DNA of 63,869 nucleotides, filler included, from Reclinomonas americana ATCC 50394 (taxonomy: Eukaryota), in the NCBI GenBank assembly GCA_048213135.1. It is 7 parts of 2 records of this genome, joined end to end, with 100 filler letters (N's around TTAATTAATTAA, not from the genome) between each part and the next. Parts side by side here need not be neighbours in the genome. Positions count along the whole stretch, not along the records: positions 1 to 31,859 come from PS015039.1; 6 more parts are not named here. One strand, given 5' to 3'. Shown here piece after piece: positions 1 through 54,768 of this stretch (position 1 is its first letter; each line of letters begins with the position of its first letter). A model generated the notes under the pieces. It made no database searches. It was not told the DNA's origin and saw only the letters and a list, made by a program, of their open reading frames with translations. Both the position numbers and the translations under genes were made by a program.

Positions 1-3000
1 TCGACGCTGGAGTCGATTGTACAAACAGTGCCGCGTCGCGCCAAGACATTGCGCGCGGTGGCCGGCACACTGGGTGCCACGACCGGTCGTCTGCAGGGCG
101 CGCTCATCGCCATGTACCGCGCCTTCAATCGCCTCTTCACGTTTGTGTTTTCGGAGAGTGACACTGGTGGCCGGAACGAGGAAGTTGCGTGTCGATGACA
201 CACCGCTCTCTCGCCAGTGTTGGCTCATATTGTTCTGTTTTTCCTCGCAGGTGGTTGCTGCCTTTGGGTATTTGCGCGAGTACGCAACCAAGCTACTCTC
301 CGGCAACAACGCCGACGACTCATTCCTTGCGTCGCTTGTCGTCGAGCTGCGACGACTGCTGGATCTCAGTGACCCTGTGCTGCGAAAGGGCGCCGCAGAG
401 TCGTGGAAGATCGTGATTGAGATGAAGCGACAGGAGCTGCGGGAGCTGCTGGTGTACAAGACCGCCGGTGGCGAGCAGCGCTCACTAATTGACGACGGCC
501 TGGACTTTTTGGCCTCGGATCCTCTCATCTTCTGGGAGTGGTACCGGGAGCACACGGCGCAGGTGGATGCCGTTTTCAAGGACACGGTGATGCCGTTCTG
601 GACGCAGCGACAGGAACACGAGCGGTCGTTGATGTTGAACAGCACCAAGCGCATGGAGGATCAGCAACGACAGAAGCGCAAGCGACACACGTTGCACGAC
701 ACGACGTGGGCCACGCGTTTGGCCGAGTTTGTGCGCGCCAAGGACTCGCTGCTGCAGACCTCGCTGCTGGACGAAATGGAGCGGCAGCGTCGTCAGCGTC
801 GTATGGCATACGATCGCTACCGCTTTGCGTGGGAGCAGTGGAAGACTTTGCGCCAGGAGATCAGGCGACCTCGCGCTGCCTGGGAGGTCTGTGGTGTCTG
901 TCGTGTGTGTAATGTGATGGTGGTAATTTGTTTATTTTTGCTGACACTGCATATTTGCTGCAATCGCAGTACAAGTCGAACAAGGCTCGTCGGTGGCGGT
1001 TGGACTACACCGAAGGACCCGATCGCATGCGTCTCAAGCTGGAACCGTATCCCGACGAAGACGAAGAGGAGGGAGCGAGTGCGGCGGAAATTGCGGCCGC
1101 TGCGGCTCGTGCCGGCATGAAGGCGGAGAAGTCGTCGAGTGCGACCAGCCTGCGCCGTGGCAGCCGCCCTGTGTCTCCGTTTGCTGGCAGCGACAACTCT
1201 GGTAGCTCACCCAACGGGTCACCACCACGCACTGCCGGTGTCGAAGGTCCGTCGGACGGCACGTCGCCGTTGTCGGTGGCGGTGCCAGCTGCTGGCAGCA
1301 GTGACTCGTTGCATCTGACGGTGATGCCGTCCGCCACGGGTCCCTTGACGCCGGAAGCTGGATCACCAGCGGTCAGCACACCGACCGATTTTGCCAGCGA
1401 GCAGGGGTCGCCCTTGTCGCGCGCCAGCTCTCTGCCGGCTGGCCCTCTGCCGTTGTCGTTGGGCGGCGAACACGAGTCGTCCACCGGCTCGCCCGATTTC
1501 CTGCTGACGTCAGCCCAGCGCGCCAAGTTGGTGGCGCTTTACGAGGGTCGCTCGGCGCAAGCGGGCGCCGAAGGGGTTGACGAAGATCCCGCAGACGACG
1601 CGGTGTTGGTATTCGACGCCGATTCGGGTGGGTCGGACGACAGCGACCGCGAGGGTGCGTCGCCGTCGGTCGAGGCCCTCCGAAACGAGCTCGGCGGTCC
1701 AAGTGCTATGCGTTCTCCGTCGCCGCTGGTGGTGCGTCATTGTCTCTCCATTGCTTTTCCCCCGTTCAAGTGTGTTTTTGTTGGTGCTCACATTGTATTT
1801 GTGTATGCGTGTGTTGCGCGGTTGCAGTCGCAGTCGGAGAAGCAGGCGCGACGCAAGTCCAAGCGGTTCACGCGGTTGGAGGGCATCAATCGACCCGAAC
1901 CGCTGACACTGCCGCCAGCATCCACCGCCGCTCTGGTGGGCCCGGCAGCGCGCGGCTCGCGCACGCCAGATGCCACCAGCTCGAGTTCCAACGCGGCATC
2001 TGTGCGACGCAGTCTGAAGCCCAAGGGCCGTCGTCAGCTGTCGATTGATCTCTCCAAGACACTGCAGTCGGGTGATATGTCGTCGCCCGAGGAGGGTGGT
2101 CATGGCCTACTGGATGTGGACGGTGCGGCCGACCATTTCTTGGAGGAAAGCTTCGAGTCGACCGACCTGGCCGGCGTGATTGGTGCGGCGGCTGCGGCCG
2201 CCTCTCTCGGTGAGCACCCTGGTGACGCAGGATCGTCGAGCGGCTCGCCGCTGCAAGGTGCGCCGCTCGAGCAATACCACCACCAGCGGCCGTTGCTGCC
2301 GCCGCTGCCGTCGGGGAACATCCCGCTTGCGGACGGCACTTCGCTGGCGTTCATGGCCGACGATGCACCGCCGTCTGCAACGGGCGATCGTTCGACCGCG
2401 ATTGGCACGGCCGAGGACTTCCACGCCGCTGGCGATTTCGGTGATGAGCCGGGTGCGTCGGCGGCGGGAGAGGGCTCGGTGTCGTCGGCCTCGCCGTCCA
2501 TGCTGTCGCCTCCAGAGGCCGTCATCGAGGAAGTGGCGAGCAGCAGCGAGGCAGAGAACGAGGAGGGTGGCGAAGCTGATGAAGACGACGACGATGACGA
2601 CGAGCATGGGCACAAGCAGTTGGCGCGCTTGATTGATCGCTTGGACCGAGTGGACCCCAACACCATCTTCAACTGTGCACGCGTGCAGGGTCAGGAGGTG
2701 GTCGAGGGCGTGCTCATGGTGTGCGAGCACCACTTGTACGTGATTGACAACTATTTTGTCAACCCCAACGGCGATGTCGTGGAGGTGAGTGCGGCAGTCC
2801 TTCCTCATTTTTTTTTTTTGAAGAGCTGTTGTTTCTAACTTGCTGTCACCCCGTGCAGCTGAACGACGAACCGGAGACGGCGCCCAAGTCGTGGGAGGAG
2901 CAGATCAACGAAAGCACCAGCAGCACGGCTCACGAGAGCATTGCGGTGCGAACTCGCCAGGTGGAGCGCGAGGTCACACGCAATCGATCGGGACGCACTG

Positions 3001-6000
3001 TGTCGCACCGCGTGCGTCGATGGTCTGCCGACGAGATTCGCGAGCTGCACAAGCGGCGCTACCTGCTTCGTCCCGTCGGTCTGGAGCTGTTTTGCACCGA
3101 CGGTCGGACGTACCTGCTGCTGTTCCATTTGTCGGAGCGCGACGAAGTGCACGACCTCATCTTGTCGCGTCCACTGCCGAACCTCAACTACGGCAACTTC
3201 CTGATGGCCGACGGTGGCGCCGCACAGACCACCAACCGTGCGCGCAGCTTTGCTCGGCATTTGAAGATGTGGCTGCGTACGACGACGCAGCGGTGGCAGC
3301 GCGGCGAAATCTCCAACTTCCAGTACCTCATGTTCCTCAACACGCTGGCCGGCCGCACCTACAACGACCTCACGCAGTACCCGGTGTTCCCGTGGGTGCT
3401 GTCGGACTACCACAGCGAGGAGCTCAATCTCAACGACCCGAGCGTGTATCGCGACCTGACCAAGCCGATGGGTGCCATTGGCGCCGATCGTGCCGAGGCC
3501 TTCAAGATGCGCTACGCCGAGTGGGACGAGCCGGGTGTGCCCAAGTGGCACTACGGCAGCCACTACTCGACGGCCGGTGTGGTGATGCACTATTTGGTGC
3601 GCCTGGAGCCGTTTGCGACCCTCGCGCAGCAGCTGCAGAGTGGCCGCTTCGACCAGCCGGACCGCATCTTCCACTCGCTCGCCGACTCGTGGCTGTCGGC
3701 GTCGGAGCTGAGCATGACGGACGTGAAGGAGCTGATCCCCGAGTTCTTCTACCTGCCTGACTTCCTGGACAACATGAACGGCTTCGACATGGGCGAGCGC
3801 TCATCCGGTGTCTTTGTCGACTCGGTGCTGCTGCCGCCGTGGGCACACAACTCGCCGCGCGAGTTCATTATCAAGCACCGGCAGGCGCTGGAGAGCGAGT
3901 ACGTCAGCAAGAACTTGCACCACTGGATCGATCTCATCTTTGGCTACAAGCAGGTATGAGAGGATCTTGGTCGTTGGCCTCCATCTCCTCCGTTGTGCTC
4001 ATTCTTTCCTCTCTTTCCCGCAGCGCGGTCCCGCGGCCGAGGCAGCGCAGAATGTGTTCTACTTTTTGACGTACGAGGGCGCTGTGGACATTGACCAGAT
4101 CACCGACCCGAAGGATCGTGCGGCCGTGATTGCGCAGATCAACAACTTTGGTCAGACGCCACAGCAACTCTTCACCAAGCCGCACCCACAGCGCACAGTC
4201 AGCAGCTCGGCCGATCCGTTCTACGTGTACACTCACCCCGAGCATCTGACGCCCAAGGAGGTGCGCAAGGCCGGCGAATCGGTGTACGAAGTGCGCATCA
4301 ACTCGCTGGAGAAGGTGTTCTTTGCCGGTCCCAACGCCGTGATGATTCCACCCAAGTACAACAAGCTGGTGGCATTTGGCTTCCCGGACAACAGTTTGCG
4401 CCTCATTCGTGTGGCGAACGGGCGCACGCTGGAGGTCTACGAGGCGGCGCATGAGGGACAGGTGCGCATGAAACCACTGTCTCTCTCTCTCACACACACT
4501 ACAGCCTCGTGCTAATTGTTGTTTCGCCGACGCAGGTGTTGTGTGCGGCCATTTCCAGCGACGGCAAGATCCTGGCCACGGGCGGAGTGGACGGTATCGT
4601 GAGTGTGTGGCGTGTGGACAGACACGACGAGGTCGGTCGCAAGATTGTCCACTTGGCGCGCTTCTACGGGCACTCTGGCCCGGTGACCNNNNNNNNNNNN
4701 NNNNNNNNNNNNNNNNNNNNNNNNNNNNNNNNNNNNNNNNNNNNNNNNNNNNNNNNNNNNNNNNNNNNNNNNNNNNNNNNNNNNNNNNNNNNNNNNNNNN
4801 NNNNNNNNNNNNNNNNNNNNNNNNNNNNNNNNNNNNNNNNNNNNNNNNNNNNNNNNNNNNNNNNNNNNNNNNNNNNNNNNNNNNNNNNNNNNNNNNNNNN
4901 NNNNNNNNNNNNNNNNNNNNNNNNNNNNNNNNNNNNNNNNNNNNNNNNNNNNNNNNNNNNNNNNNNNNNNNNNNNNNNNNNNNNNNNNNNNNNNNNNNNN
5001 NNNNNNNNNNNNNNNNNNNNNNNNNNNNNNNNNNNNNNNNNNNNNNNNNNNNNNNNNNNNNNNNNNNNNNNNNNNNNNNNNNNNNNNNNNNNNNNNNNNN
5101 NNNNNNNNNNNNNNNNNNNNNNNNNNNNNNNNNNNNNNNNNNNNNNNNNNNNNNNNNNNNNNNNNNNNNNNNNNNNNNNNNNNNNNNNNNNNNNNNNNNN
5201 NNNNNNNNNNNNNNNNNNNNNNNNNNNNNNNNNNNNNNNNNNNNNNNNNNNNNNNNNNNNNNNNNNNNNNNNNNNNNNNNNNNNNNNNNNNNNNNNNNNN
5301 NNNNNNNNNNNNNNNNNNNNNNNNNNNNNNNNNNNNNNNNNNNNNNNNNNNNNNNNNNNNNNNNNNNNNNNNNNNNNNNNNNNNNNNNNNNNNNNNNNNN
5401 NNNNNNNNNNNNNNNNNNNNNNNNNNAGTGTGTTTGTGTCGTCACCGTGGTCGATGGTGCTGTCGGGCTCGGAGGACGGCACGGCCATTGTGTGGGACTT
5501 GAATCGACGGCGATTTGTGCGCCAACTCGGTCAGCTGCGTGTGGATGATGGCTTGCCTCGGCGCAGTCGCCTGCTGCACCAGCAGCAACTCGGTACTGCG
5601 GGAGGCGGAGGAGCGTCGGCCCAGCGAGCTGGCTCACCTGAGCCGGCCTCCAACGGCACGCCAGCCGAGCCACCGCGCCATCGCACCGGTCACGGCGGCA
5701 GTGCAGCGCCGCTGCATCCGCATCCGCAGGCCGTGTCGTGTGTGTACGTGAACGAGGACTCTGGTGATTTGATCACGTGCAGCAGTGGCACGCTGAACGT
5801 GTGGAGCGCCAATGGAGAACTGTTGCACTGCAAGCTCACGTCCCTGCAATGGCGCGAACGCATCACGGCGGTGACTGTGTCTCGCGGTCCGCCGTGGGAT
5901 GAGCGCAACATGATTGTGACGGGTCACCAGGACGGCGTGCTGCGTGTGTGGTCGGTTCTGCTGCCGTCGGACTCGGCCAAGTTTGAGCGTTCGCGTTCGC

Positions 6001-7280: not shown

Positions 7281-9058
<1,778 letters not shown>

Positions 9059-9217: not shown

Positions 9218-11681
<2,464 letters not shown>

Positions 11682-11930: not shown

Positions 11931-14900
11931 CTATCGCACTGCGAATGCTGTCACGAAGTTGTCTGCGCGCGAGGCCATGTAGATCAGCACCCGTGCAACA
12001 CAAAGACGACACTCATGGTGTAGGAGGTCGTAACGATACAGCGTCGCGTTGGCGGTCTTCCAGGGAGTCCCATTGCAGAATGCGATCGAATTGTAGCAGT
12101 GCTTCGTTGACATCGCCTTGGCCGTGATGCGCGCGGCCGACAATGATGGCGGCCTCCACGTGACGCGGCAGTCGCTCGAGAATAAGCTCGGCTTCGGACT
12201 TGGCCGCCGCGAAGCGCTGGCGACGAAGCTGACACTCAGCGGTACGCAGACGAAGCGAAACTGTACGGCTGACCACCGTCTCCGTCGACGGTTGTTTGTC
12301 TGCAGCAGCAACTACTTCAGGCTGTCGCGTGCATGCACACTGCAACAATTGGTCCTTCTTACACACCAAGTTTCTGCAACGCGTGCTGGAAGCAGCGGAG
12401 TGCCTGAGCATAGTCGCCAGCATCAATGGCGGCGTGACCTTGTCGTTCCCACTCCTGCGGATCGCGAACACAGGTCCATCAGAAACAACAGACACCACAG
12501 CAGCTCAGCGGCAGCAACTGACACTTGCCTCGATGTCTTCCGAAACAGGCAGCCCTTCTCCCATGCCACTCAGCATCGCGCCACCTTGTGCGACTTCTGT
12601 AAGCTCGCCAGCAAGCAGAGCAAAGTTGCCGTGTCGGGCAAAGTCAACGGCATTCTTCGCGTATTCGCAGAGTTGCGGATGTGGTGGTACGTGAGTGCAT
12701 TGCACTGACACACACACATAGAGAAACACAGGAGCGATGCACAAACCATGTGCAGCACCGAGTCGCACCGAAGCACCAGTTCAGGTTGCAGCCGTGCCAA
12801 ATAAAGCGCCGCTTCTCGATTGCCCTTTCTGTGGCCGACATCAGCGACGACTGTTTCAAGCAAGCCACGGTAGCAAAGTGACGCAACAAGGCAGCAATCG
12901 TCACAGGCAGCACGTGATTGTCAGCCTCCATGGCCACGGTGGCCGGATTGCACTCTGCGAGCAGTCGAACGCACTCCACAGATCCTTGCTGAGCTGCCAG
13001 GTGGATCGGCAGCCACGTGCGCGGATCCATCGCCAGTGCATAGTGGGGGGCGAATTCGAGAAGCGCGGCTAGCACCTCATAGTTGCCCTTGTTGGCGGCC
13101 AGATGTGCGGGACAGCGCTCGGCCTGAACGTGCACAGTGTCGGGACACAGCTCGCACACCAGCCGTACCAGAGCCGCCGTATCTTGCCGCAGTGCCAACA
13201 CGTGCAGAATTGTGAGAGACTCTTGAAACATGTGCACGCCCAGTGCAGGGTTCATGGTCAGCAGCGTGCGAATGGCCTCCATGTGGTTGCGAGCAGCGGC
13301 TACCAGCAGACAACAATGGCCGTCGCCGTCCTCCACCAGCGCCATTTCGATGCCACCGAACGCCAACAACAACTGCAATATCTCGGATCGCTGCTCCGTC
13401 CAGTGCTCGGCCAACACGCACAAATGAATGCAATATGTGCCAGCGTTATCGGGCAGCTGAATGGTGTTGAGGTCGGCGTCCAGCAAGATTGAGACGCACT
13501 CGGCGTGTCCACTCTGGCACGCCTGGTGGGTGGATCGATAGAAGACACTCAGGTGCGTCGCCGAATAATGTTGAGAATGCAACACACACATACCTGATGA
13601 ATCGGCAGACGACCGTCTCGCGAGGCAACACGAGCGCCAGATGGGGCACAGGCGAGCAGCATGCGCAGGACCGCTGCGTGGCCCTGCTGCGCAGCGAGGA
13701 AAATGGGAGTTCCGCCACGTGCCTCCTGCGCTAGAGCGCCTTCGGGCCATTCGGCAAGCAGACGTTCCACGGTGTCGTCATGGCCATTCTGCGCAGCAAA
13801 ATGCAGCGCTGTCCACTGGTCCTCTTCGACGCCGCGAACACGCTCCGGAGAAGCGCCTTCCAGCAATATCTCCAACATGCTCACGTGGCCAATGTTGGCG
13901 ACAGTGATCAGTGGCGTGCGCAAGCCCGCAAACCGGCAGTCTGCCAAGTCCGGGTGCTCCTGTAGCATCTGCTGGAATTTGTCGATCTTGCCGGCCACGA
14001 TTGCGCGCTCGAACGCGGCCACTGTATCGATCGAAATCAGCAAGATCGTGCGACTGTGAGTGACATGCGTCGTGGTGGACGCACCCACTGGCACGGGCAG
14101 CGTCATATTGGCAGACAATGCCGACTGCGAAGACGACGGCAACGACAGCAACGGCGACGGAGAGGGTGCAACATTGACCGAAGCGGAAGCTGACGCCGTG
14201 CCGGCAAGCTGCGCCGAATTCGGGAGCTCGCCGGCAAGCTGTGCGTGCCCCCTGTGACGTGCCACTTCCACTGGCGTGCGTCCGTCCGCATCCCTGACGT
14301 CCAGTGTCTCAGGCACGATGATAGCAAGCAGCAGTGCTGCTTTTCGATGTCCATTTTCACATGCCAAGTGCAGTAGCGTCGATCCTGCGCCACCACCACA
14401 TAATGTCAGCGATAAGAATGCACGTGCAAACAAGAATGCATGCATACCAGAATTTGTGCGGTGTCTCGCGGTTGCCGGTCGGCAGCGAATGAGTACAATG
14501 AGTGCCACTTCGTGACCAGCACTGCCGGAAAGAATGCGTGAGTACAGTTGAGCGCAGCACATCTTTCACAACCGACACCAGAAAACCTTGCTGCAAAGTG
14601 CACCGCCAGCCAACCGCGGTGATCAGCAATCTCACAAAGCTGTGCCGCCTGCTGCACCATGTCTTGAATCACAGAGGTATCGCCAACCTGCGCAGCTTCA
14701 TGCAGTGGACATTCGTCGTCGATCTCTACGACACGCGAGCCGTCGTTCGCCGCCGGTTGTGGCGCAGTCGCCACCGCGCTCGCCAGAGCCGACACTATGG
14801 CGGCGACGGATCCACCTTTGCCCTGCTGGTTCTCACTTTGTGGCAGTCGACCACCTCCACCGCTGCCCACTGCATCGGCATCCGAAACGAGTGAGTGACT

Positions 14901-17900
14901 TCACACTGCAACTGCACCGAAGTGACATGACACACAAGGTTCACGCACCGGCTTCACGAATCGCAGCATCGAGTTGTTGCTGCGAGCCACCGGCTTTTGG
15001 CCGGACAGCAGACGCATTGTTTTGTGGCATCAGGCTGCGCAAAATGGTGGCCAGTGGCTCGGGTGACATATTGAGCGGAACGCGGCCCTGCCGATCGGCC
15101 AGCGTGATGACTTCGGGTGCGCGCAGTGCCAGCTCGGTGGCAACCGCCACAAAGCCGCGTTGTGCTGCAATGTGGAGCGCACAGTAGCCATCGTCTGCCC
15201 GTGCTCGCACACAGTCAGGGTACGCAGCGCGCAGGAGGTCCACACAAGCCAGCGAATCGCTGCATGACACAAAGTGAGCCATCAACAGAAACAACACACA
15301 AGATCAGCGGTGACTCACCACTGGGCGGCAAAGTGGATAGGAAGCCACATGTTGGCCTCTGGCACTCGCGCAGCCTCCGGGCACCGACTCAAAATGGCCT
15401 TCACAGCAAGTGCATTCCCTTTTTCCGCGGCAAAATGCAGCGGCGTCCAGTCATTGGGCTGGTGCGGAGTCATCGCCGTTTCCGGGGCGCGGTCAAGTAG
15501 CAGCTCAATGACTTCGGCGTTGTCGGTAACCGCGGCCAAGTGGATGGGAAGACTGCCCTTGGCGTTCGGCAACAAAGCCATACTGGGATTGCAGTCCAGT
15601 AGCACTCTCATGACGTGCGGATATCCCTTCTGGGCGGCCACGTGGGTGCCGAGCGACTGTGATTGACCGCGCGGCACGAGGAGAGACTCGGGGAATCGTT
15701 CGGCCAAGTAGCGCACGGTGTCGGCATGCCCGTTCTGCACCGCCGCTTGGAGAGGCGTCCTTTGTCACAACAGATTATCAACGAACGGTGAGAGTTGCCA
15801 CACACTGCGAAAATCACTTGTCACTCACCGCCCGTCGTCACACTGGATCTTGTTGGCCTCCGGGCACGCCTCCACAATCACACGCACGCATTCCAGATGT
15901 CCGCCTTGCGCTGCCAGATCGAGACACGTGGCGCCGCCCTGTCGACAGGAGAGCGCGGTTGCATTATAGTTAGGTTGGTGAATAGCATACACACAAACAC
16001 ACACTAGAACGCGCTCCAACCTTGAGCTCCTGCATTAAGGCCATTGACGGATCGTACTTTAGCAGCAGTCGAACCACGTCCGAATAGCCGAACTGAGCCG
16101 CCAAGTGCGCACTGCTCCAGTTGAGCTGCTCGACGGTGCGAACCATGTCCGGATCGGCTGCCAGAAGCACTTCCAGGCACGCAACAGCGTTCTCCTCCGA
16201 CGCGGTGTGCAGTGGTAGGCGGCCGCGATAGTCCGCCGTGTACAGCATGCCCGGGAAGACGTTCAGCAGAGCCAATGCACACTTGGGCGAATTGGCTTTC
16301 GCGGCACAATGAAGCGGCGTAAGACCATTGGAGTCTTGCAGTTGACCAGCATCGGCGCCCATGTTGAAGCGTACGAGCACTTCGAGGATGGCCTCAACGC
16401 ACTCGTCGAATCCATTAAAGGCGGCCACGTGCAGCGGCGTCGGGAGTGCACTAAATGGACTGACAGCCAGCGCCAAGTGCGGCGCCGTGGCGAGAATGAA
16501 GCGAATGATTTCCGGCTGACAGTTCTGCGCGGCCACAATCACGGGCGAGGCCACCAAGACTTCTGGGTCGCGCAGCAGTCGCAGCTGCTCGGGGGTCTCC
16601 AGCAGCAGTCGCACAGCCTCCACGCTTCCGCACTGGCAGGCCAGCGGCAGTGGAGTCCAGTTCTTCGTGTCGGCAATGGTGACAGCGTCCGGCGCCAGCT
16701 CCAGCAGATACTTGATTGCTTCGGCATAACCAGAATACGCCGCCAAGTGCAACGCCAGTCGACCGCTCGAATCGGGGATTCGCAGCGTGTCGGGATCCAT
16801 CAGACCCAAGAAGCGACTGGCCACTGCATGGCCGTGCAGGCATGCCGTATGAAGTGGCAGGAGACTGGTGTCGCCGCGCGTGCGACGAGTCAGCGAGTGG
16901 TCCTGTCGCAGAAGCACAGACAGCACGGCCGCCTGCCCGCGCTCAGCGGCCGCGTGTGCAATCGAACCGCGTTTCGTTAGTCGATCAATCATCCCAGGCT
17001 GGGAACGCAGCAGCTGCATGACGAGCGGAACGTAGCCGCATCCAACGGCCACCTGGAACAGCTCGAACATATTCGATTCGGCAAGTACGAGGCTGCCCGG
17101 ACTCAGTCGGTGCAGCCCATGCAGACGCTCGGGGTCGTTACTCTTCGCCGCCGACACCACGCAGGCACCAAAGTCAGCTTCCGGCGTGCCGCCCACGGCC
17201 CACTGCAGCAGGAAGTCGTGATCGCGAGTATCGTCAACGGCGAAGCAGGAGAGTCGACCATCACGGCCGCCGACGAGCACACGGCCCAGCTGTCGTCCGT
17301 CGAGCGTTGGCGAAAGCGGCGCAGGCACCACACCGGATACACAGTCGGCTTGTCGCACGAAGCCACGCTCAACGCGCGGACGATTTTCCAACGAAAGCAA
17401 TCGCACCGCACCGTCGGCAGAGCTGACGGCCAGGAGCGGCAGAGCACTCGCCACACCCGACGGCACCATGCAAATACCACTAATGGGCGATCGCGCGACT
17501 CCGACACCGGCTTCTCGATGCACAGACGATGGCGGCTGTCGGAAGCGCTCCGCAGGTGACATGGACGATTCGAGATCGATGCCGTACCTTACCACCGTCA
17601 CCGAGCCGTCGCTCGATCCAATTACCAGTACCACCTCAAACGTCTGCACCACGACCTCGACGCACGACACTACAGCCTGGTGATTCTCACCCAGCCTATA
17701 CTCGCCCAACAGCATGTCGTCCATGTCGCTGCCGGAGAGATCGAGAAAGCGGAGCACATTGTCAAGTGCTGCTGTCACCAGCATAGTGCCGTCAAACACC
17801 GGCACCACACATATCACATAGTCGCCGTGCGGCAACATCTCGTGCAGTGGATCCAGCCACAAACTTGTTTTCCAGTCACCGCCACGCTCGCCACCGACAC

Positions 17901-20900
17901 TGCTGCTGCTGCTGCTGCTACCAGTGACCGCGTGGGGGCCTGGATCAGCTGGCGATTTGGCGCTCGAGGCGTCGCTGCTGTCCTTGAATTGCATCAAGCT
18001 CGCACTGATACCGGCAGAACTGGCCGTGCTCCGCACGCACAGAGTGGCATCGAGCAGTGAGCAGCGGAACACCGACAGACAGAGAACTGTGTCGAGCGAT
18101 GGCGGCGCCTCGATCTGCAGTAGTAGTTCTCCATTCTCTAGGTCGAACACTCGAACACCACCCTCACTGTCGCCGACGAATACGACACGATCGTCGGGCG
18201 AGATGGCCAACGCTGTCACCATGCGATTCGAGAGTGTGCTGGTCTGCGTAAAGTCCCACAGTAGCTCGCCGGTCTGGGTGCTGAAAACATGGCAGAGCGA
18301 GCCGGGACCGTGGCCACCCGTAACCACCAGCTCACCGTCGTGTGTAACCGCCATGGCATCACCAGCGGAGATGGAGACCGCCCCGCCGTCACTAATGTCG
18401 TCGAGACTTGGAATGGGCCACAGCAGCAGGCGACCATCCTGCGAGCCACTGATCACATGTCGACTGTCCATGGTGCCCTTGATGGTGTTGGTCGGCAGGA
18501 CATGCGCCTCGTACCGCCGATACACTTGACTACTGCCCGTCGCTGTGAGCGATACGTGACCGTCGGAGCCAGCAGCGGAAATCCAGTGACCGTCGGGTGT
18601 GAAGGAGATGGAGAGGATGTCGTCGTGTGCCTTGATTGTTTGCATACGGTCGCCAGTCAACAGCGACCAAACATAGATGCACCCATCGTCTGCAGCACCG
18701 ACAATCCTCTCTGCTTCCACTGACACATCAATGTCGTGAAACAGAGTCGACAGCGCCACGGTCTTGAGTGCAAACAATCGCCGCGCCTTCTTCAACGCCA
18801 CCTTGAGCAGATCCTTGCCACTGTCGCTGGACCGTTCGCATTCGTCCAGGCGCTGCATCACACCAGTAGAGTACACAGCCGTCTCCTTCCCAACGCCTCC
18901 AATAACAAGCAGATCACCGATCGAGCATCCAGCACAGCGTGCAGTCACAGGCAACGAGTTCCCTTGCAGCGGAGGCACACAGCGCATCGCAAAAACGCCA
19001 TTGTCGGTTGACAGCGACCATTGCTTCTCACCCGTTTCCACTGAAATGGCCCGAACCCCGTCGTCGTGACCGATCATCAGCGTGCGCCCGTCGGTGGAGA
19101 ACACCAGCGCCGAAATTCGGCCAGGCTTGTCAGGGCAGCCCGCATTGGGCGGTATTCCCGAGCGGCGCTCCCACTGCGGCAAATCCCACACGCCAACGTG
19201 GCCGGGTACATCGCCGCCAGCAGCCAGCATGCTGCCATCAGGAGACAGAGCCAGGGCGTGCGCGCTGCATTCGAATGGGTTCTTCAACCGGAACGTCTCG
19301 TGCCCGTCAACCAGGTGCCACATGACAATGTCGCCATTGTTGTGACCGCTGATCACCACCTCGCGGTTCGACCAAGCCGGATGGGCAACAACCGAACAGA
19401 GAACGGCCAGGTTGCATCGCATGCGCGACGGATACGGCAGCTTGGCATCGGTCATGTCGGCCTCTGAAAAATCAGTGTCGACGCAAAACGCCGTGTCCAA
19501 TGCCACATGCCGCAGGTCGGACCTCGCCAAGCTCGCGCGCTGCAAATTGGCGGTGGAGAGATCGGCATACGGAATGCGAATACCGTCCAGAATACGACCG
19601 GAGAAGGACACGTGCGCTCGGCACAGAATGGTGGCCGAGTTCGAGGCAATTGTCGCCAGCGACGCGTCTTCTCGCGAGGCGGCAATCACTCGCCACAGTC
19701 GCTGCTGCATGCGCTCGTTGCGGCGCACGCGCTCCGCAATCTGCGCCGTCAGACTCGTGTACCGCAACTCGGAGATGAAGTGGACATTCAGCACGTGTGC
19801 GCGCAGATCAATGTGACCGGAGAGCGTGTCAAAGTAATCGAGGTCCCACGACTTCAGCGCAAATACGTGACGCGCCAGGCAGTATTCGAGCAGCGACGGG
19901 TGCAAAAATGCCCACGCGCTGGTTCCCTGCCGTTGCACAATGGCACTGCAGTCGCGAATGGATCTGAGAGCGTCCGTCATGTACGGCAGAAAATCGACAC
20001 CCGTTGCACGAGTGGTTCCGCGAATGTGCATCATGGCCGCCAGCGACTCCAAGAAAGTAAAGCACAGGTCCGTATTCGGCCGTTGGTTGGGCGGCCGGCG
20101 ATTGCGTTCGCGCGCGATCCACTCGCGCACGAACACGTTCAGCACGTCCACTCGCAGCAGACGGCCGGCACGTACCGACATGGCCACGCGACCATCAATA
20201 CTGGCTGCAGGCACACCCTGGCGTCGACCGGCCGCGCCTTTCTTCTTTTGCTTCTCCAACAGTTGCGGCAGCACTTGTACCATGGTGGACAGCATGAACG
20301 GCGACGACTTGAGCACATCGGCGCCGTGCAGCGCCGCCAGCGCAACACGCAGATCGTCCAGCACTCTCCACGGAGATCGGGAGTTGGACGAAAGCGACGG
20401 CGGCGACGACAGTGCCGCAGCAGCGGAGGAGACCTCTGAGACAGGCATGTCGTCACCGGCCAGCAGCTGGCTGTTGCGAGTGCACATTGCCATGTAGTGC
20501 ACCAAGTACTCCTCGATCTGCGCTGGCGAGAACGGCACCAAATGTCGCACCACAAGACCGGAAAACGCAGACTGCAAGCTGGAGGCCCGTGACGAGGACT
20601 CGGCCGGTGCCGGCCTCTCGTCACCCTCGATCGGACTTGATTGGGGCTGCTGGTCAGCCACTGCATGCTGCTGTTCTTGCTGGAGCTGCTCACCGTTCTC
20701 GCCGCCGACCTGCACGGGAGCCAGCGACGCAGGTGGCGCGAACACATGTGTGTAGCCCGCGACCAGTCCGTCGGCAAAGTCACTGCGGCAAGTGATGATG
20801 ATTTTGACGTCGTCATATTGCGCGAGCTGTATGAGAGAACGCGTGGTGAGTGTGACGATGCATGCATGTGGTGGTGGCTCTGAGGCCGAACCTGGTTAGT

Positions 20901-23900
20901 GACAAAGAGATTGGCTGGCCGTTCCATGTCCTGCTGCCACTCGTCATAGCCATCGCACAGCAGCAGCAGGGGCAAATGTCGCAACTGCTGCACGTCATCC
21001 TCCTTGATGAATGGGTGCAGCTGCATGAGAGTTCCGGCCACAAGGTTGGTGGCCGGTTGCTGCAGGCTGGCCAGCGAAACACGCAGCGGCAGGCGTGCGG
21101 TGCCATCTGCGTGCTGCGCCAGCATCCGATTGGCCAGCACCGCCAAGCTCAGACTCTTACCGCTGCCGCCGTCACCGAGAACGAGCATTACACGTGCCGC
21201 TGGATCGGCCAGGAAGGTTTCAAACTGCACATCCACGAATGAGAAAGGCAATACTTAATGGTTCACAAAAATGCACAGTTACTACAGAAAGGAAGACAGT
21301 GTGCGGTGACCCTGACCGACACACAACACACCTCGTTCTGCAAACTCCTCTTGTCGGCGGCAAGCCTGGATGCTACGCACTCCAACGGAACATACAGCTC
21401 CAGTTCGCGTTGCATCTGCGGATTGTGCTGCAACTGCCAGGACTGTCGTTCGACAACTTGCGCCAGCTTCGCCTCCAAAGTGGTATACTGCACCAAGGTG
21501 TCGAACGGATCTGCAGCGTACATACGAGTGAGTCGCGCACGGCGTGGATGATGAAGCTCCACTGAGAGACAAAAGAGCGCTCACCACAACGGTACCGCTG
21601 CAGTCGGTCGAACCAACGCGGACTTTCCGCGTCACTGGGCACCTGCACCTCGAGGATGTGCAGGTACTTTGCCAGTTGCTCAAAAACGTGCTCCATGGCT
21701 TCGGCAGTGGACAGCTCCTCGTGGAACACACTGTTACGGATGTCTCTCATGCCCGCCACCGCGTCTCTCTGCCGTCCACAGTAAGCACAGCGAAAAAGAA
21801 GACTTTGACTGACTACGAGACCGCGATTCGCACACACGTACCACCACGGCGTCTGGCTCCAACAGCAACACAGTGCGGTCACAATGAATCGTGTTGTCCC
21901 AGTAACTCGCGATTGCTTCGTCGGCCGGGCGCACCGCCACGCGGCTGGGCAAGCGGTATCCGAGGAAGCAGATGAGCGACGACAGGAAGGTGAGTTCCAT
22001 GGAATCCGCATTGGCCTCCTCATCGAGCAATCGCAGTTGCTCCATTATCACGTCGCGAGATTTACCGGCAGAGGCCTGTGGACGGCAAGACTTGAATTTC
22101 TTGCCATCATCTGACGCGGTCCACCAGTATCTGCGATGTGTCGTTGTGTATCAGAATCCAGTGCAACGCCCACGGGTGGAGAAGAAGAGAAGCGCATGGC
22201 CAAACCTCCAGTCATGGTCCGAGAGAGCTGCAGGATCTCGGTCGGGTACAATCAGCCGGTAATCGAAAGGTGGCGACTCGCTTGCCGTGCGCCTCTTGAA
22301 GTCACGATACCGGTGTACTGCGTGAAACCGCAGTGCCGGAAGCACAACCTGACTGATGGCGCAGTCCAATCGCAACCACAGCTCGCGTTTGCGACTGTGC
22401 AATAATCGGGAGTTGAGAATCATGAAAGTAGACAAGCAAGCAAGAGATGCGGCACGTACCTTGCGGCCACACTCGCCGCGTGTGCCGACTTGCTGTCGGT
22501 GAGAGCTGCGCCAAGACTCACAGCCCACTCTGCGTAGCCAGCGGTTGAAGAATCAGCAAGTGACAAGAACACAATGAAATCATGACAACGGCGACGAAAC
22601 TGTCAAAGCACGCCAGCGGCGTAGTGTGCGCCAAGTTGCGCAGAGCAGATGTGATGTTGTTGCCGGCCAAGGCCATGGTAAACGCCTGGTCCACCATGTA
22701 GTAGGTGTCCGGTAATGTGCACAGCAGGAACGGCACAAAGAGGCGGCGTGAGGCCCATTGGCGCATCATGTCCATGATGCGGCGCATGCCAATGTCCGGT
22801 GACCACGGCGCTATTGTGCCAAGAGCCGGCGACGGTGATGCGTCGTCGCCCGCTGACCTCTCGCGGTCCGCTTCAGCACTGCCGCCGAGAGCGAGCGCGT
22901 GTTGGCCGCGCTTGGGAGCGCCAGCAACTGGCAGACCCTCCAACAGATTGGCGTCTGCCTCGTCAACTCGAGCGGCGCGTGGAAAGTGGATCTCCCACTC
23001 GCGACTGATGGTCACTAGTTGCGCGAAGCGGCTGGCCCACGTGAGGCACTCGTCGACAGACGGAATCGACCCGGGTTGGCCAGCTTGGATGATGCGCTCC
23101 CGCTCCGACACCATCCACGAAGCGAGAACGCCACAAACGTGTTCCCACGAACCAAACGACCCTTGAAATTGGTCCACGGCGGCCGCCGCAATGTGTGCAA
23201 AGCACTCGGTCAACAGCGCAGGCAGGCGACACAGCGCCAACAGTGCCGGCGACGCTTGCAACAGCGTCAGTTTGCTGATGGCACTGGCGCCAATCTCCAC
23301 CACCGGACTCGAATCATCGTTGGAGAGCTGCAGCTCGTCAATGGCCGACACCAACTCATCGTCGGCAAGTGGCAACAAAAGACGCTGGACAAGCCACTGC
23401 TGGTGTACGAGCGTGCCGGCCACTGCTGTCGGCCACATCACTTGCACGTAGTCGTCCTCGGAGGTGCCGAGTTGAGCCGCATACTCTGGTCGGCACACGA
23501 TGATGACCTTGACGTTCTGGTACTGCAACAACTGCAGGCGCCACGGGCAGACGGGTCAGCAGCAGAAGATATTGAAAAAATGACACACCTCGAGCACACA
23601 CAACGCAACTCCGTCTCTGGTAAAAATGTGCTCCTCAATGTTGGCGCTGTCAAAGCCGTCGACGAGCAGCAGCAGCGGCTGTTGGCGCAAACGATCGACA
23701 TCACTGGCCGAAAAGTCGCCCGAGTACAACTTGAGCGCCTCCGGAAGCAGTTGACTGCGCAGGCGATCCGCCGGCAGCTGCAACAGGTGCAGCGGAATGT
23801 ACACTGGCACTCGGCACTGCGAAAGCCTCTCCGACGTGTCGCCCTCGTGAAGAACGCGGCGAGCCAACTCCACCGTGGTGCGAGCCAGCACGTGTGATTT

Positions 23901-25190
23901 GCCGCTACCCGCGGCGCCAAACAAAAGCATGACGTGCGCTTTTTGGTTGGCCAAAAAGGTGCGCACCTGCCCGGACGAAATTCGATGACGGCGTCAGGTC
24001 CCATGCAACAAACACGCACACACACACACACACACACATCAGCAGCAGCGCTCACCTCATGAGCCACAGGCGCTCGATGATCGCGAGCATCTGGCGCGGC
24101 GCAGGAAACATCGAATGTGCACTGCACAGCGTCCTCGAACCTCGCCAGTTGCGAGTCGCACAGACGACGGACCTTGCCGTCAAAGTCCGACAGCATGGCG
24201 CTCACATCGCCGTGCATGATGCGATCGATTTCGCCGTACCAGTGCGAGTTGACAGTGACGTTGCACGAGGCCGCCAGTTCGCGCACACTGCGAACCAGGT
24301 CGTTCATGGTGTTGTTAAATTGGTCGTCGGTGAGACCAATGGACTCGGCGTGCACGATTTCGTTGCGGATCTGCTGCACGCAGTGAAACGCCAGTCTCTG
24401 TGGGGGAGGTGGACAGGAAGGGAAAGGGGAATAGACGGAGAAAGAGGAGGAGGGGGAAGAGGGCAATGAGAGAAAGCATGAGCGCAGGGAACGAGTGAGA
24501 TAAAGAGGAGACTTGCACGCACCGCTGGCTTGTCGGGCACCAACAGCACAGCTGCACGCTCCCGCTGGCACTCGGCGTCCCACAACTTGGCTTTGTCTGT
24601 GGTTTTCGGCTCTGTCGCGTACGCCTTCACCGGTCGATATCCAATGAGCTGCGCGCAATAATTCGCCGCCGTGATATCCAGATCGGCCGCAGACCCAGTC
24701 CTGAACAGCGTCTCCCACGCCGCCTTTTGCTCGGCTTGCTTGAGCTTGGAGCGCACACGGTACTCGGTGCCGTCAGCCTTGTGCACAACTCGATATCTGC
24801 GCAAAGGAGGCGAGTGCGTGAGCCATGCTGCGGGGAGGGATTAGGCTCGGAATAATGTGTGTGAGTGAGATGTACCTCCACTGCAAGTCAGGCGGCAGTG
24901 GTTTCGGATCAACAAAGTAGGTCGCATCGATCCGCACGGGAAGCGCGGTGTCGTCGAGAAGCACCTCTTGGCGGAACTTGATCACTGCCTGCTCGAGGTA
25001 GGCGCGCAGCACACGGAGAGCCGACTGCAGCGTGGCCAGGTGCAAGCGCAGTGCATTTTGTAACTTTCTGTGTTCGGTGGCCTGTGTGAGAACGAGCGGA
25101 GATCATCACTGCGCTCGAACACGAACGCGATCACCGTTGTGGGTCAACTCCGTCGTCGACCGGGGAGGGTGGAGGCACGTGTGGCCAGCT
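11931..25190 (-). CDS. Giant NLR/STAND-like protein: HEPN(DZIP3-like)-NACHT-HEPN-NACHT-pentapeptide-WD40-ankyrin repeats-TPR; true start upstream (unresolved, ~25200-26100), last exon approximate
   Basis: Two P-loops (VMLLFGAAGSGKS, VMLVLGDGGSGKS), Walker B (LLLVDGFDS, LLLCDGYDE), KVIIVCR/KIIITCR, FLHPSLLEY, pentapeptide ADLSTANLQRASLARSDLR, WD40 repeats, many TPLHxAA-type ankyrins and TPR helices (GHAAIDAGDYAQALRCFQHAL). Manual splicing keeps the frame from HEPN1 through NACHT2 into the ankyrins; a few distal junctions are uncertain. Confidence 0.85.
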
Positions 25191-26205
25191 GCAGAACAGA
25201 GGGAGAGGGAGGGAGAGGGAGAGAAAAGGAGGAAGAGAGAGGGCGAGAGCGATTGACGGAAACAGTGAGTTAGACAAGCAAGCACAGAGAGAGAGAGAGG
25301 AGGGAGGGAGGGAGAGAGTAGGGAGGGAGAGGGAGAGAGAGGCACACACGCGCACACACACTGACAGACCCGCTGCCACTTGCACTGTCACTTCGGGGAA
25401 ACGAGTGATCAATGGGTGCCTGTGCACACACATACAGCAAGTGAGCGGATGAGTGTCGCGCGCGCACACACACACATACACTTTGAAGGTGGAGACGCAC
25501 TGGTGTTGGGAAGGGAGAGGCTGAGACACCGGGTGAGGGCGGTGGAATGCGGTATGTATCGGGAGAGCTGCAGAGAGACAGGCAGTGAGAGAGAGAGAGA
25601 GCAGTGAGAGAAGTTGGAGAAGGTGTGCAGTGGGCGAAACTCGAGTGGGTTCATTGTCGACAGAGGGTGCTGTGAGAATCGGTGTCTCCGCACAGAAAGA
25701 GAGAGAGATTCGATGTTCGAGACACTCCAACCAAGCAATCCGAACGCGATCCGGACACGCTGTTGGTGGCAGCCAAAGAGCAAGTACAGAAGGCTTGTGC
25801 GACTACTCGGAGTCTATAGTGCGATTGGCGACGAAATGCCATGCGTTGGACTTCGATTTTTTCGATATCATCGACGTCGACGTCGCTGGAATCCTCGCGC
25901 TCACCGACGAATGCTTCTTTCGTTGGCGCTCTTGGAAATAGCAAAGTGTAAAACGCAGCAACAGGGTGCCTGATGTGGCGTGTGTGTTTGCATTCGTGCA
26001 CAGGCTGCGATGGAGTGAACGTCGGGATCATGCCGGCTTGCGCGTCGAAAATCATAACGGCCATGCTCTCCTGTAAGAGAGGAAGCAGAGCACTAGGGAA
26101 TGTAGGTGCCACGTACGCCGCACGTGCAGCACGGACGAGGAAGGTTTTGACAGGGGACGCGCAGGACTTCACACACACCGTCTTCTCTCTCACGAATCGA
26201 AAGCC

Positions 26206-26690
26206 ATGAACGTGCCCGCGCTGATTGACCCTGTTGTGCGTACTCTAGCAGCTGTGTGTTGTGTCTGTGTGTATGCTGTATGCGTGTGGGGGTCAATGTA
26301 TTCGCTGCAGTCAGATTCATGTTCTCACTCACTCTCTTTCTCTCCATCTCTCGCGTGCAGGGCCCTCTGGGTGGCCAGTTGCGTGCACACATGCTGTGCT
26401 CAACGCACAGCCAATCATAATATCTCTCTCATACAATCACTCGCTCCCTCTATGTCTATCTCTGTCGCAGCTACTCGGTGTTGCCTGGCATGGTGAACAG
26501 TGCCGACAACATGACCGCTTCCTCTCAGCAGTATGGCGTGCCCGGATACGGCTCGGATGGTGAGCGAAGAGCCTCTCCAACATCGAGTTGATGTGTTATC
26601 CGAATCTCATGCGTTTTGTTGGCAGTGTTGGGCTCGCTGCAGACCATTTCGCAGAACACGCAGGACTTCATGGCGGAGAATGGCATCTGA
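26206..26690 (+). CDS. 66-aa microprotein, copy 1 (exons 26206-26235, 26361-26377, 26471-26559, 26626-26690)
   Basis: GT-AG splicing gives MNVPALIDPVGPLGGHYSVLPGMVNSADNMTASSQQYGVPGYGSDVLGSLQTISQNTQDFMAENGI*. Exons are conserved with copy 2; introns have diverged. Confidence 0.8.
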
Positions 26691-26772
26691 AAGAGTCTTC
26701 CCCGTGCTGCGCAATTAATGAAACACCAACAGACTGACTGCACTCGATCACGTAACGATACGATACGATACG

Positions 26773-27299
26773 ATGAACGTCCCCGCGCTGATTGACCCTG
26801 TTGTGCGTGCACTTACGAAGCAGCACTTCTTGTTCTTGAGTGTGTGCGTCTAGTCAGTGTTCGATCAACCTGGTTACTTGCTTCAAGATCAGCAGCCGAC
26901 TCTCTGTCTCTCACTCACTCTCTCGCTCTCTCTCTCTCTCGCTGTGTGTGGATGCGGGTGTGTGTTTGTAGGGTCCTCTCGGTGGCCAGTTGCGTGTGTT
27001 TCGCTGACCACTCGACGTCACATCCGCTGTCTCGCTCACGCACATTCTCTCCTCTCTCCGCCTGCGGTCGCAGCTACTCGGTGTTGCCTGGTTTGGTGAA
27101 TGGTGCCGACAACTTCAGCGCAGCCTCGCAGCAGTATGGCGTAAGTGGGTTTGGCGCAGATGGTGAGCCACAATGCCATGCTCACATGCATAATCATCTG
27201 GACGCTGATCATCGTGAACTTCTTGCTGGTGCAGGCATGGCTTCTCTGCAAAACCTTTCGCAGAACACGCAGGACTTCATGGCGGAGAATGGCATCTGA
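26773..27299 (+). CDS. 66-aa microprotein, copy 2 (exons 26773-26802, 26972-26988, 27074-27162, 27235-27299)
   Basis: MNVPALIDPVGPLGGHYSVLPGLVNGADNFSAASQQYGVSGFGADGMASLQNLSQNTQDFMAENGI*. Exon lengths 30/17/89/65 nt are identical to copy 1, with synonymous and conservative changes. Confidence 0.8.
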
Positions 27300-28417
27300 G
27301 AGAGTCTTTGCAATTGTTCACTCTCCCATGCCAGTTGCCACTTATTTGCCTGTGGAGTACTAGTGAACCGGAATCCCCCCCTCTTGATTGACTACCAGAG
27401 AGTTTTTCGGAACAGTTGAGGTGCAGCGCTGCGGAGGAACCCAGACGTAGGACTCGGAAGAAGGGTCGATCGCAGAGTCTGTTCTCGCTTACGAGCAACA
27501 ACATCACGGTGTCTGCGCAGCGGTATGCCGACCCCTTGCAATTGTTGTTCTGTTGATTTTCACTGTGCAGCCACCGGTCAGTGGCTGCCACAGTGTTGAA
27601 GTCACTGCAGCTGCTGCTGCAACAATGACGACGACAACAACAACAACTGCGCCTACCACCTGCTCAAGCCACCACCGATATGAGCCTCACCAACAACATG
27701 ACAAGCTCTCTTTTATTTCAACCACGTCACACCTCCACTGCTTTGCTTTGCCTGTTTCACGGATCCNNNNNNNNNNNNNNNNNNNNNNNNNNNNNNNNNN
27801 NNNNNNNNNNNNNNNNNNNNNNNNNNNNNNNNNNNNNNNNNNNNNNNNNNNNNNNNNNNNNNNNNNNNNNNNNNNNNNNNNNNNNNNNNNNNNNNNNNNN
27901 NNNNNNNNNNNNNNNNNNNNNNNNNNNNNNNNNNNNNNNNNNNNNNNNNNNNNNNNNNNNNNNNNNNNNNNNNNNNNNNNNNNNNNNNNNNNNNNNNNNN
28001 NNNNNNNNNNNNNNNNNNNNNNNNNNNNNNNNNNNNNNNNNNNNNNNNNNNNNNNNNNNNNNNNNNNNNNNNNNNNNNNNNNNNNNNNNNNNNNNNNNNN
28101 NNNNNNNNNNNNNNNNNNNNNNNNNNNNNNNNNNNNNNNNNNNNNNNNNNNNNNNNNNNNNNNNNNNNNNNNNNNNNNNNNNNNNNNNNNNNNNNNNNNN
28201 NNNNNNNNNNNNNNNNNNNNNNNNNNNNNNNNNNNNNNNNNNNNNNNNNNNNNNNNNNNNNNNNNNNNNNNNNNNNNNNNNNNNNNNNNNNNNNNNNNNN
28301 NNNNNNNNNNNNNNNNNNNNNNNNNNNNNNNNNNNNNNNNNNNNNNNNNNNNNNNNNNNNNNNNNNNNNNNNNNNNNNNNNNNNNNNNNNNNNNNNNNNN
28401 NNNNNNGTGCGTCAAAT

Positions 28418-31859: not shown

Positions 31860-31959
31860 NNNNNNNNNNNNNNNNNNNNNNNNNNNNNNNNNNNNNNNNN
31901 NNNTTAATTAATTAANNNNNNNNNNNNNNNNNNNNNNNNNNNNNNNNNNNNNNNNNNNN
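31860..31959. other. Artificial scaffold linker (N-TTAATTAATTAA-N); the same linker core is at 37887, 42543, 51699, 54430 and 60555
   Basis: Identical 12-mer with stops in all six frames, centred in a 100-nt N spacer, present six times. Confidence 0.97.
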
Positions 31960-37842: not shown

Positions 37843-37973
37843 NNNNNNNNNNNNNNNNNNNNNNNNNNNNNNNNNNNNNNNNNNNNTTAATTAATTAANN
37901 NNNNNNNNNNNNNNNNNNNNNNNNNNNNNNNNNNNNNNNNNNCTCATTCTCACTCCCCCCCCCCCCCCCCCAG

Positions 37974-42498: not shown

Positions 42499-42598
42499 NN
42501 NNNNNNNNNNNNNNNNNNNNNNNNNNNNNNNNNNNNNNNNNNTTAATTAATTAANNNNNNNNNNNNNNNNNNNNNNNNNNNNNNNNNNNNNNNNNNNN

Positions 42599-54318: not shown

Positions 54319-54526
54319 GTGTAAGTGCATAGTGTGTATAGTGTATGTGTGTGTGTGTGTGTGTGTCATGCTTGTTTGTGTATGCNNNNNNNNNNNNNNN
54401 NNNNNNNNNNNNNNNNNNNNNNNNNNNNNTTAATTAATTAANNNNNNNNNNNNNNNNNNNNNNNNNNNNNNNNNNNNNNNNNNNNCACACTCAACAACTG
54501 TGCTGCTAGTGTGTGTGTGTGCGTAC

Positions 54527-54706
54527 CATGAAGGCCAGGTGCGCCCACCACAAGAAAGCCACGATCAGTCTGAACAGCCATGACTGATCGCTGTCCTCAC
54601 GAGGCGACAGCCACACAAACCACACACAGATGTGCGTCACGAGGCCAGAGAGGAGGCCCACAAACTGCGCTGTTTGCGTGGTCCTTCTCCTGCTCTCCGC
54701 CACCAT
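54527..54706 (-). CDS. First exon of a membrane protein (two TM helices), divergent from MZT1; truncated
   Basis: ATG, two hydrophobic stretches, then a GTACGC donor. The layout is compatible with a DHHC palmitoyltransferase N-terminus but this is unproven. Confidence 0.4.
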
Positions 54707-54768
54707 TGCCTCCTCTATCGAGTGGATGGATTTCGCGCCCTTCTTATCTCACTCACACACGCGCGCGA

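Follow-up and report, generated by a model that had tools for sequence, protein, structure and literature searches.

A 63,869-nucleotide stretch of the Reclinomonas americana ATCC 50394 assembly GCA_048213135.1, referred to below as the window, encodes on its minus strand two arginine-x4-histidine (Rx4H) motifs, each in a helical domain ahead of a NACHT nucleotide-binding module. This locus raises the question of whether one receptor-like chain carries two HEPN-type domains, each coupled to its own NACHT switch. Our tentative answer is that the locus is one large multi-exon gene of the NACHT type in the STAND class (signal transduction ATPases with numerous domains), resembling the nucleotide-binding receptors with leucine-rich repeats (NLRs). 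Its N-terminal unit, an IRNxxxH helical domain plus a NACHT nucleoside triphosphatase (NTPase), would have been duplicated in tandem long ago, giving the predicted order Rx4H-NACHT-Rx4H-NACHT-pentapeptide-WD40-ankyrin, and its Rx4H domains are most likely divergent HEPN domains.

Two paralogous modules in an open spliced frame

The gene lies on the minus strand of eukaryotic nuclear sequence with a GC content of ~0.57-0.62 along its length, within a gap-free stretch from 7749 to 27766 (the nearest runs of N are at 7729-7748 and 27767-28406). Stop-to-stop open reading frames (ORFs) on this strand break every few hundred bases and shift frame, and the break points are GT...AG pairs. Chaining of 12 exons from 25081 to 15973 (Table 1) yields a joined sequence of 8208 nt, free of stops and encoding 2736 residues, in which all 11 introns are GT-AG introns of 65-125 nt. 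In every one of the 11 non-training exons, codon-usage log-odds, trained on exon 12 only and expressed per codon, are above zero in the model frame and below zero in the remaining two, with values of +0.14 to +0.48 and a GC content at third codon positions (GC3) of 0.63-0.75; the lowest value, +0.14, belongs to exons 6 and 7.

The two halves of the N-terminal region are copies of each other. Residues 1-726 align with the sequence from residue 727 onward in BLASTP (122 of 444 residues identical, 27%; E=1e-21), and a MAFFT alignment of the modules contains 119 identities in 448 columns, of which 61 fall among 267 columns before the NACHT domain (23%) and 58 among 141 columns within it (41%). In both modules the parts follow the same order, namely a helical lead-in, a DLDIT/SMELT plus (L/F)xGYR segment, IRNxxxHxE, the NACHT P-loop and Walker B motif, and a ...CR(P/S) strand. 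Exon by exon, the N-terminal halves of the Rx4H domains (exons 2 and 8) are 25% identical, with 23 invariant columns that include D40 and GYR; the C-terminal halves (exons 3 and 9) are 23% identical, yet the I, R, N, H and E of IRNxxxHxE are all invariant; and the P-loop exons (4 and 11) are 41% identical. The first 36 residues of exon 5 also align with module 2 (E=3e-4) and the remainder does not; module 1 ends in a helical region without a repeat domain of its own. The RNxxxH motif occurs exactly twice in the 2736-residue model, at homologous places 120 and 127 residues ahead of the P-loops, compared with 15 occurrences among the 127,734 residues of a six-frame translation of the whole window and an expectation of ~0.3 per protein of the model's size.

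Four intron positions are common to both modules: before RY(R/W), before R(L/D)A, before (V/F)(R/E)TFLA and after the Walker B segment. Because these four introns stand at homologous positions, a block of several exons was duplicated, and long ago. A tblastn search of the window with four segments of the model recovered no third copy of the module. Thus far the initial annotation is borne out as to its two tandem modules: the Rx4H motifs and the DLDIT/SMELT and LIGYR/FLGYR segments are all present on the minus strand where it had placed them, the tandem modules are real by their paralogy and by the Pfam NACHT membership of both P-loop ORFs, and both modules can be joined into one ORF through canonical short introns.

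NACHT domains carry a Walker A motif of the form GxxGxGKS/T and a Walker B motif of the form hhhhDGhD(E). Neither module has lost its Walker A or Walker B motif or the ...CR(P/S) strand that comes next. The Pfam NACHT (PF05729) cut-off of 26.7 bits is exceeded by both P-loop ORFs, at 26.9 bits (23556-23993) and 28.8 bits (20139-21254), the matches running from profile position 1 to 93-100 of 167 (1-93 for NACHT-1); the scan found a family in three of ten ORF pieces. For the C-terminal half of NACHT with its helical and winged-helix modules, no Pfam family was found in exon 5 at E<=10, and the first 450 residues of exon 12 gave a sub-threshold Pentapeptide match (E=0.02) alone. By eye, exon 5 and the start of exon 12 seem to keep the ...CR(P/S)..., PxLL... 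and (Y/F)xxHxSxxE(Y)-like elements in their usual order. The NACHT exons drew weak P-loop matches alone from PADLOC and NCBIfam models, for example Avs2 at 14.8 bits, and a word-based search with the alignment of exons 4 and 11 (proteins of ~200-2000 residues) placed none of 8000 scored candidates at E<=0.001.

The long exon 12 ORF contains Ank_2 (2.2e-44) and WD40 (1.4e-19), and no leucine-rich repeat (LRR) family is among the best 25 of its 41 Pfam families. With no LRR among these families and a C-terminus of pentapeptide, WD40 and ankyrin repeats, the protein is therefore of the NACHT-WD40/ANK type rather than a canonical metazoan NLR, which joins NACHT to LRR; this type has been reported outside animals (PMC3879445). 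The sole relative found for any part of the model is a 1378-residue NACHT-pentapeptide-WD40 protein from a metagenome contig (P0004), which aligns with 84% of the first 450 residues of exon 12 at 23% identity. The aligned region includes the ...GIRIPYADLS... pentapeptide junction, whereas the metagenome protein lacks an Rx4H domain, a second NACHT domain and the ankyrin tail. Because it has only ~85 residues before its P-loop, the Rx4H domain is an addition to a widespread NACHT-WD40 core.

Identity of the Rx4H domains

Each Rx4H domain is split by an intron, with its halves in different frames, and the family, fold and search scores given here are accordingly scores of half-domains. When eight exact exon pieces were scanned with Pfam at E<=10, exon 3 was the only piece matched, and its best family was HEPN_DZIP3 (PF18738; E=0.087). 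In this match, residues 7-48 of exon 3 lie on profile positions 84-127 of 144 and cover the motif; the third-ranked family for the same exon is HEPN_RiboL-PSP (E=0.11). Similarly, in the ESM Atlas the nearest named cluster to exon 3 is 100% PF18738 (score 0.88, 182 of 256 features), followed by a DUF4559 cluster at 0.87, and the ten best named matches to exon 9 belong to one family or clan, with HEPN_Apea and Csm6 HEPN clusters leading at 0.88.

The motif itself and its surroundings are consistent with these matches. RNEIVH and RNSVFH, at homologous positions in the two modules, are of the Rx4-6H form with asparagine after the arginine, and this asparagine is described as typical of the HEPN motif (PMC9646362). 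HEPN domains are described as four-helix up-down bundles in which an insert separates helices 2 and 3 and Rx4-6H ends helix 3, ahead of the loop to helix 4 (PMC3710099). In the AlphaFold2 model of exon 3, which is poor (predicted local distance difference test, pLDDT, of 61.6), helices span residues 2-20 and 24-45, and the motif, residues 11-16, lies at the end of the first; in that of exon 2, also poor (pLDDT 47.4), helices span residues 20-32, 41-50 and 66-78, which would be two helices and an insert helix. The helix order in these low-confidence half-domain models fits the HEPN description. A further feature compared was the conserved acidic residue that HEPN domains have in helix 2, near the motif: D40 of exon 2, within DLDIT, is invariant with respect to exon 8 and stands at the start of the predicted helix 41-50, as judged from two sequences and a poor model. 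In addition, the position directly N-terminal to NACHT is the usual site of DZIP3-like HEPN domains in oysters and cnidarians, and it is the same here.

Several results weigh against a HEPN assignment. Exon 3 by itself reaches 13.0 bits, short of the HEPN_DZIP3 gathering threshold of 27 bits, and exons 2, 8 and 9 have no Pfam match at E<=10. Both Atlas scores, at 0.88, are below 0.9 and have the standing of leads, and the recognition value for exon 3 is low. PADLOC and NCBIfam were blank for all five Rx4H-domain pieces, and Foldseek, run against the Protein Data Bank (PDB) with the poor half-domain models, gave no match at E<=0.001 and generic helical bundles only. Sequence searches were equally unproductive: a profile of exons 3 and 9 recovered no true relative among 1.84 billion protein representatives and a single PDB match, TUP1, at E=2; a word-based search with exon 3 (proteins of ~200-2000 residues) placed none of 101 candidates at E<=0.01; and none of the 599 and 236 pattern matches from two scans of metagenome contigs was confirmed by tblastn. 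Because no homologue was found, conservation of the arginine and histidine rests on a single internal paralogue. Three proteins that did match the profile at E<=0.001 are bacterial multi-GAF sensor proteins aligned through 4-6 short, weak repeat stretches, and were judged spurious.

Based on these results, a HEPN fold for the Rx4H domains is rather likely, and they are most probably strongly diverged members of the DZIP3/hRUL138 type of HEPN. The earlier assignment to a DZIP3-like HEPN thus stands in part: HEPN_DZIP3 is the best Pfam match of exon 3, and in the Atlas both exon 3 and exon 9 lie nearest to HEPN clusters, while the score of every piece falls below the threshold of any family.

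Alternative readings and relation to known receptors

Whether the two modules belong to one protein turns on the junction between them, for which the sequence allows two good arrangements: introns at 22600-22530 and 22459-22395 flanking the 70-nt exon 6, or a single 127-nt intron at 22521-22395 that keeps the frame and whose GTGAGT donor overlaps the stop of the exon 5 frame. The modules probably share a single chain and, as the model has it, one transcript. Exons 1 and 7 begin at homologous acceptors and the former has no ATG, so that exons of this kind are internal; splicing of exon 7 to upstream sequence is thereby favoured. The open frame across the junction is in itself weak evidence, because 3611 stop-free GT-AG paths cross the gap and the sequence does not dictate the join. 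It is conceivable, if unlikely, that two adjacent paralogous genes are present, one an Rx4H-NACHT gene that lacks sensor repeats and stops at the TGA at 22520-22518, the other an Rx4H-NACHT-pentapeptide-WD40-ankyrin gene starting at an ATG near 22421, with exon 6 an artefact of model building. The exon 5 frame does meet a stop at 22518, that ATG is in frame with exon 7, falls inside intron 6 of the model and could start a separate gene, and the coding scores of the flanking exons 6 and 7 are the lowest. On the other hand, the stop would be only ~97 nt from the start, compared with at least ~0.8 kb of non-coding sequence upstream of the gene; the stop overlaps a consensus-like donor whose phase agrees with that of the exon 7 acceptor; this acceptor (...GCACAG) resembles the other 10, all of which end in CAG; and the homologous exon 1, lacking an ATG, must itself be internal. 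Far less probable still is the reading of module 1 as a non-functional copy in decay or as an artefact of assembly. This is a draft assembly with numerous runs of N, artificial contig joins begin at 31.8 kb, and the C-terminal part of NACHT-1 is unseen by Pfam and no longer aligns with module 2; yet there is no run of N between 7749 and 27766, copies that are 27% identical cannot be an assembly duplication, the module 1 exons are all open with coding-type codon usage (GC3 0.72-0.73), and the P-loop and Walker B motif of module 1 are intact.

A single chain may also be built around Rx4H domains that are not working HEPN nucleases, a reading not much less likely than the preferred one, in which the domain could be a lineage-specific helical adaptor or regulatory domain, or else an RNA-binding or inactive derivative of HEPN, and the receptor would signal otherwise, with its WD40 and ankyrin repeats acting, for example, as a scaffold. 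The sub-threshold Pfam and blank PADLOC and NCBIfam results, the generic bundles from the fold searches and the want of relatives for a conservation comparison all count in its favour. Table 1 of the HEPN review includes families that lack the arginine or histidine or are inactive, and the motif is there called only 'mostly conserved' in the DZIP3 family (PMC3710099). Retention of I, R, N, H and E in both copies of an exon that is otherwise 23% identical argues the other way, as do the agreement of three weak HEPN signals (Pfam for exon 3, the Atlas for exons 3 and 9) and the restriction of RNxxxH to these two places in 2736 residues. If the tentatively preferred reading of the Rx4H domains as divergent HEPN nucleases is followed, the C-terminal repeats would keep the protein off until a ligand is bound; nucleotide-dependent opening and oligomerization of the NACHT modules would then unite Rx4H domains, between chains or within one; once paired, the domains would jointly form a composite RNase site of the kind seen in other HEPN enzymes; and cleavage of RNA could lead to defence, growth arrest or cell death. 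Both the catalytic activity and the mode of pairing in this scheme are drawn by analogy. A narrower version, in which two divergent HEPN domains of an orphan lineage, with no relatives detectable in present protein sets and each with its own NACHT switch, would fold onto one another and give a composite RNase site in cis like that of Cas13, is improbable, and pairing within the molecule is here purely conjectural; were it true, two nucleotide-dependent switches would have to open before the nuclease could fire.

The RNase activity of HEPN enzymes is metal-independent and requires dimerization, and their composite sites are formed in different ways. Cas13 has both of its HEPN domains on a single chain, where they pair, and in RNase L and the Ire1 KEN domain the pairing is between chains. 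If the Rx4H domains are HEPN, their number per chain allows a composite site in cis or, after oligomerization, in trans, as in these enzymes, although no homology beyond the motif was found and ~725 residues, including a whole NACHT module, lie between the two motifs. RNase L and KEN are classed as HEPN in PMC3710099. The same review describes bacterial proteins with an N-terminal HEPN domain and a STAND NTPase, which share the effector-switch logic, whereas the Rx4H pieces here are unmatched by PADLOC and NCBIfam models.

The closest counterparts are animal proteins with HEPN (PF18738) fused to NACHT (PF05729); few predicted immune genes of invertebrates are more expanded. More than 50 proteins of the pearl oyster are reported to have an N-terminal DZIP3-like HEPN fused to NACHT, with Rx4-6H kept in 194 of 202 DZIP3-like HEPN domains (PMC9646362), and 17-83 HEPN-NACHT proteins per genome are reported in anthozoans (PMC8260672). 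According to Table 1 of PMC3710099, DZIP3-family domains occur fused to NACHT, ankyrin and other domains in animal lineages, and the family has undergone lineage-specific expansion in Nematostella, oyster and Capsaspora. The protein described here resembles them in having Rx4H, with N after R, directly N-terminal to NACHT, in its WD40/ankyrin C-terminus and in a presumed sensor-gated RNase logic. It differs in that the unit is doubled in one predicted chain, that one exon matches PF18738, at 13 bits, and the Rx4H domain has no detectable sequence relatives, and that the host is a eukaryote with short introns and no sign of being an animal. Two STAND nucleotide-binding modules per receptor chain are also known from plant NLRs with tandem NB-ARC domains, of which wheat WTN1 is an example (bioRxiv 10.1101/2024.08.30.610185); these modules are NB-ARC rather than NACHT and belong to another kingdom, and the duplication is independent.

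In a phrase search of the literature, neither two NACHT domains nor two HEPN-NACHT units per chain turned up, and a search of this kind does not prove their absence. Where it occurs in PMC3879445 and PMC3342036, wording of the 'multiple NACHT' type denotes several NACHT genes per genome, and, among the papers listed, the 'NACHT-NACHT' and 'two NACHT' literature appears to deal with contacts between NLR molecules or with plant NB-ARC proteins. The novelty first claimed for the layout was therefore overstated, HEPN-NACHT proteins being common in bivalves and cnidarians and DZIP3-type HEPN being expanded in Capsaspora; only the doubling of the unit in one chain appears to be undescribed.

This doubling is of interest for mechanism. 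To our knowledge, how a STAND module switches on a HEPN effector has not been worked out, and two effector-switch units in one natural chain would be a compact system in which to ask whether NLR-like HEPN domains pair within or between chains. A doubled receptor also lets one ask what a second nucleotide-binding module adds, the question posed by the tandem NB-ARC receptors of plants. The locus would extend HEPN-armed STAND receptors to another unicellular or non-model eukaryote and bears on whether the design predates animals. Should the domains not be HEPN, it would still be a clear-cut example of an effector-NTPase block of several exons that was internally duplicated long ago.

Gene ends and the rest of the window

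Exon 1 lacks an ATG and is preceded by a stop, and at least one 5' exon is therefore missing from the model. Among 7013 candidate paths from an ATG to exon 1, the best begins at the ATG at 26064, with a first exon at 26064-25852 and a log-odds of +0.21. A long CT-rich low-complexity tract on the minus strand at 25190-25400, just upstream of exon 1, probably lies in an intron or the 5' untranslated region, and a (GT)n microsatellite lies within intron 3 (24030-24050, minus strand). At the other end, the true donor of exon 12 is probably near 16021. The same gene probably continues through the ankyrin ORFs that follow (Ank_2 E=3e-23, 2e-23 and 8e-19), which are split by short GT-AG introns, to ~12.7 kb, for a total of well over 3500 residues. 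A candidate TPR-like tail near 12.0-12.5 kb was seen in the automatic chain alone. Because the automatic chain cannot halt at a stop codon, it is indicative only and defines no 3' end.

Table 1. Exons of the gene model and other annotated features, in positions of the window.
Feature	Positions	Strand	Description
Exon 1	24876..25081	-	Module 1 helical lead-in; homologous to exon 7; codon log-odds +0.37; no ATG
Exon 2	24523..24796	-	N-terminal half of Rx4H domain 1; DLDIT 24684-24670, LIGYR 24648-24634
Exon 3	24056..24397	-	C-terminal half of Rx4H domain 1, RNEIVH 24367-24350; then linker to NACHT-1
Exon 4	23610..23966	-	NACHT-1; P-loop GAAGSGKS 23918-23895, Walker B LLLLVDGFD 23675-23649
Exon 5	22601..23531	-	Remainder of NACHT-1; IIVCRP strand 23504-23487, then helical region
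Exon 6	22460..22529	-	70-nt linker exon between modules; least certain part of the model
Exon 7	22206..22394	-	Module 2 helical lead-in; homologous to exon 1
Exon 8	21842..22130	-	N-terminal half of Rx4H domain 2; SMELT 22003-21989, FLGYR 21967-21953
Exon 9	21585..21768	-	C-terminal half of Rx4H domain 2; RNSVFH 21738-21721
Exon 10	21332..21510	-	Helical linker and segment preceding the second P-loop
Exon 11	20892..21224	-	NACHT-2; P-loop GDGGSGKS 21176-21153, Walker B LLLLCDGYDE 20969-20940
Exon 12	15973..20826	-	Remainder of NACHT-2, pentapeptide (~19566-19438), WD40 propellers, ankyrin repeats
Further ankyrin-repeat exons (probable)	12640..15940	-	Ankyrin ORFs; hand-read splice sites, automatic chain
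BEACH/PH_BEACH protein	2748-4512	+	E=6e-102
Phosphoglucomutase (PGM)	9709-11440	-	Best solved relatives are PGMs, including chain 1kfi (E=1.4e-30)
FAD-linked ALO-type oxidase	46901-48938	+	
MOZART1	54574-55032	+	E=1e-22

Six identical spacers of the form N44-TTAATTAATTAA-N44, with stops in all six frames, are located at 31860-31959, 37843-37942, 42499-42598, 51655-51754, 54386-54485 and 60511-60610. They are artificial joins of separate contigs; the right half of the window, from 31.8 kb, is therefore concatenated, linkage across the joins is not real, and genes past 31.8 kb cannot be relied on as neighbours. The four other protein genes in Table 1 are ordinary eukaryotic ones. Rfam and tRNA scans of the window returned nothing. 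Two long ORFs at 57358-59881 on the minus strand encode WD40 propellers (WD40 E=2.6e-73 and 2.5e-80) and might belong to a further STAND-type protein as its sensor; a tblastn search for NACHT in their vicinity was negative, and the artificial join at 60.5 kb cuts off their upstream region. Upstream of the receptor gene, at 26200-27320, there is a two-copy direct repeat of ~600 bp, with repeated segments near 26700/27300 and 26240/26810. The plus-strand ORF of each copy ends in ...QNTQDFMAENGI followed by a stop and has no Pfam match, and the repeat may represent a small gene that was duplicated and is read in the direction leading away from the receptor gene.

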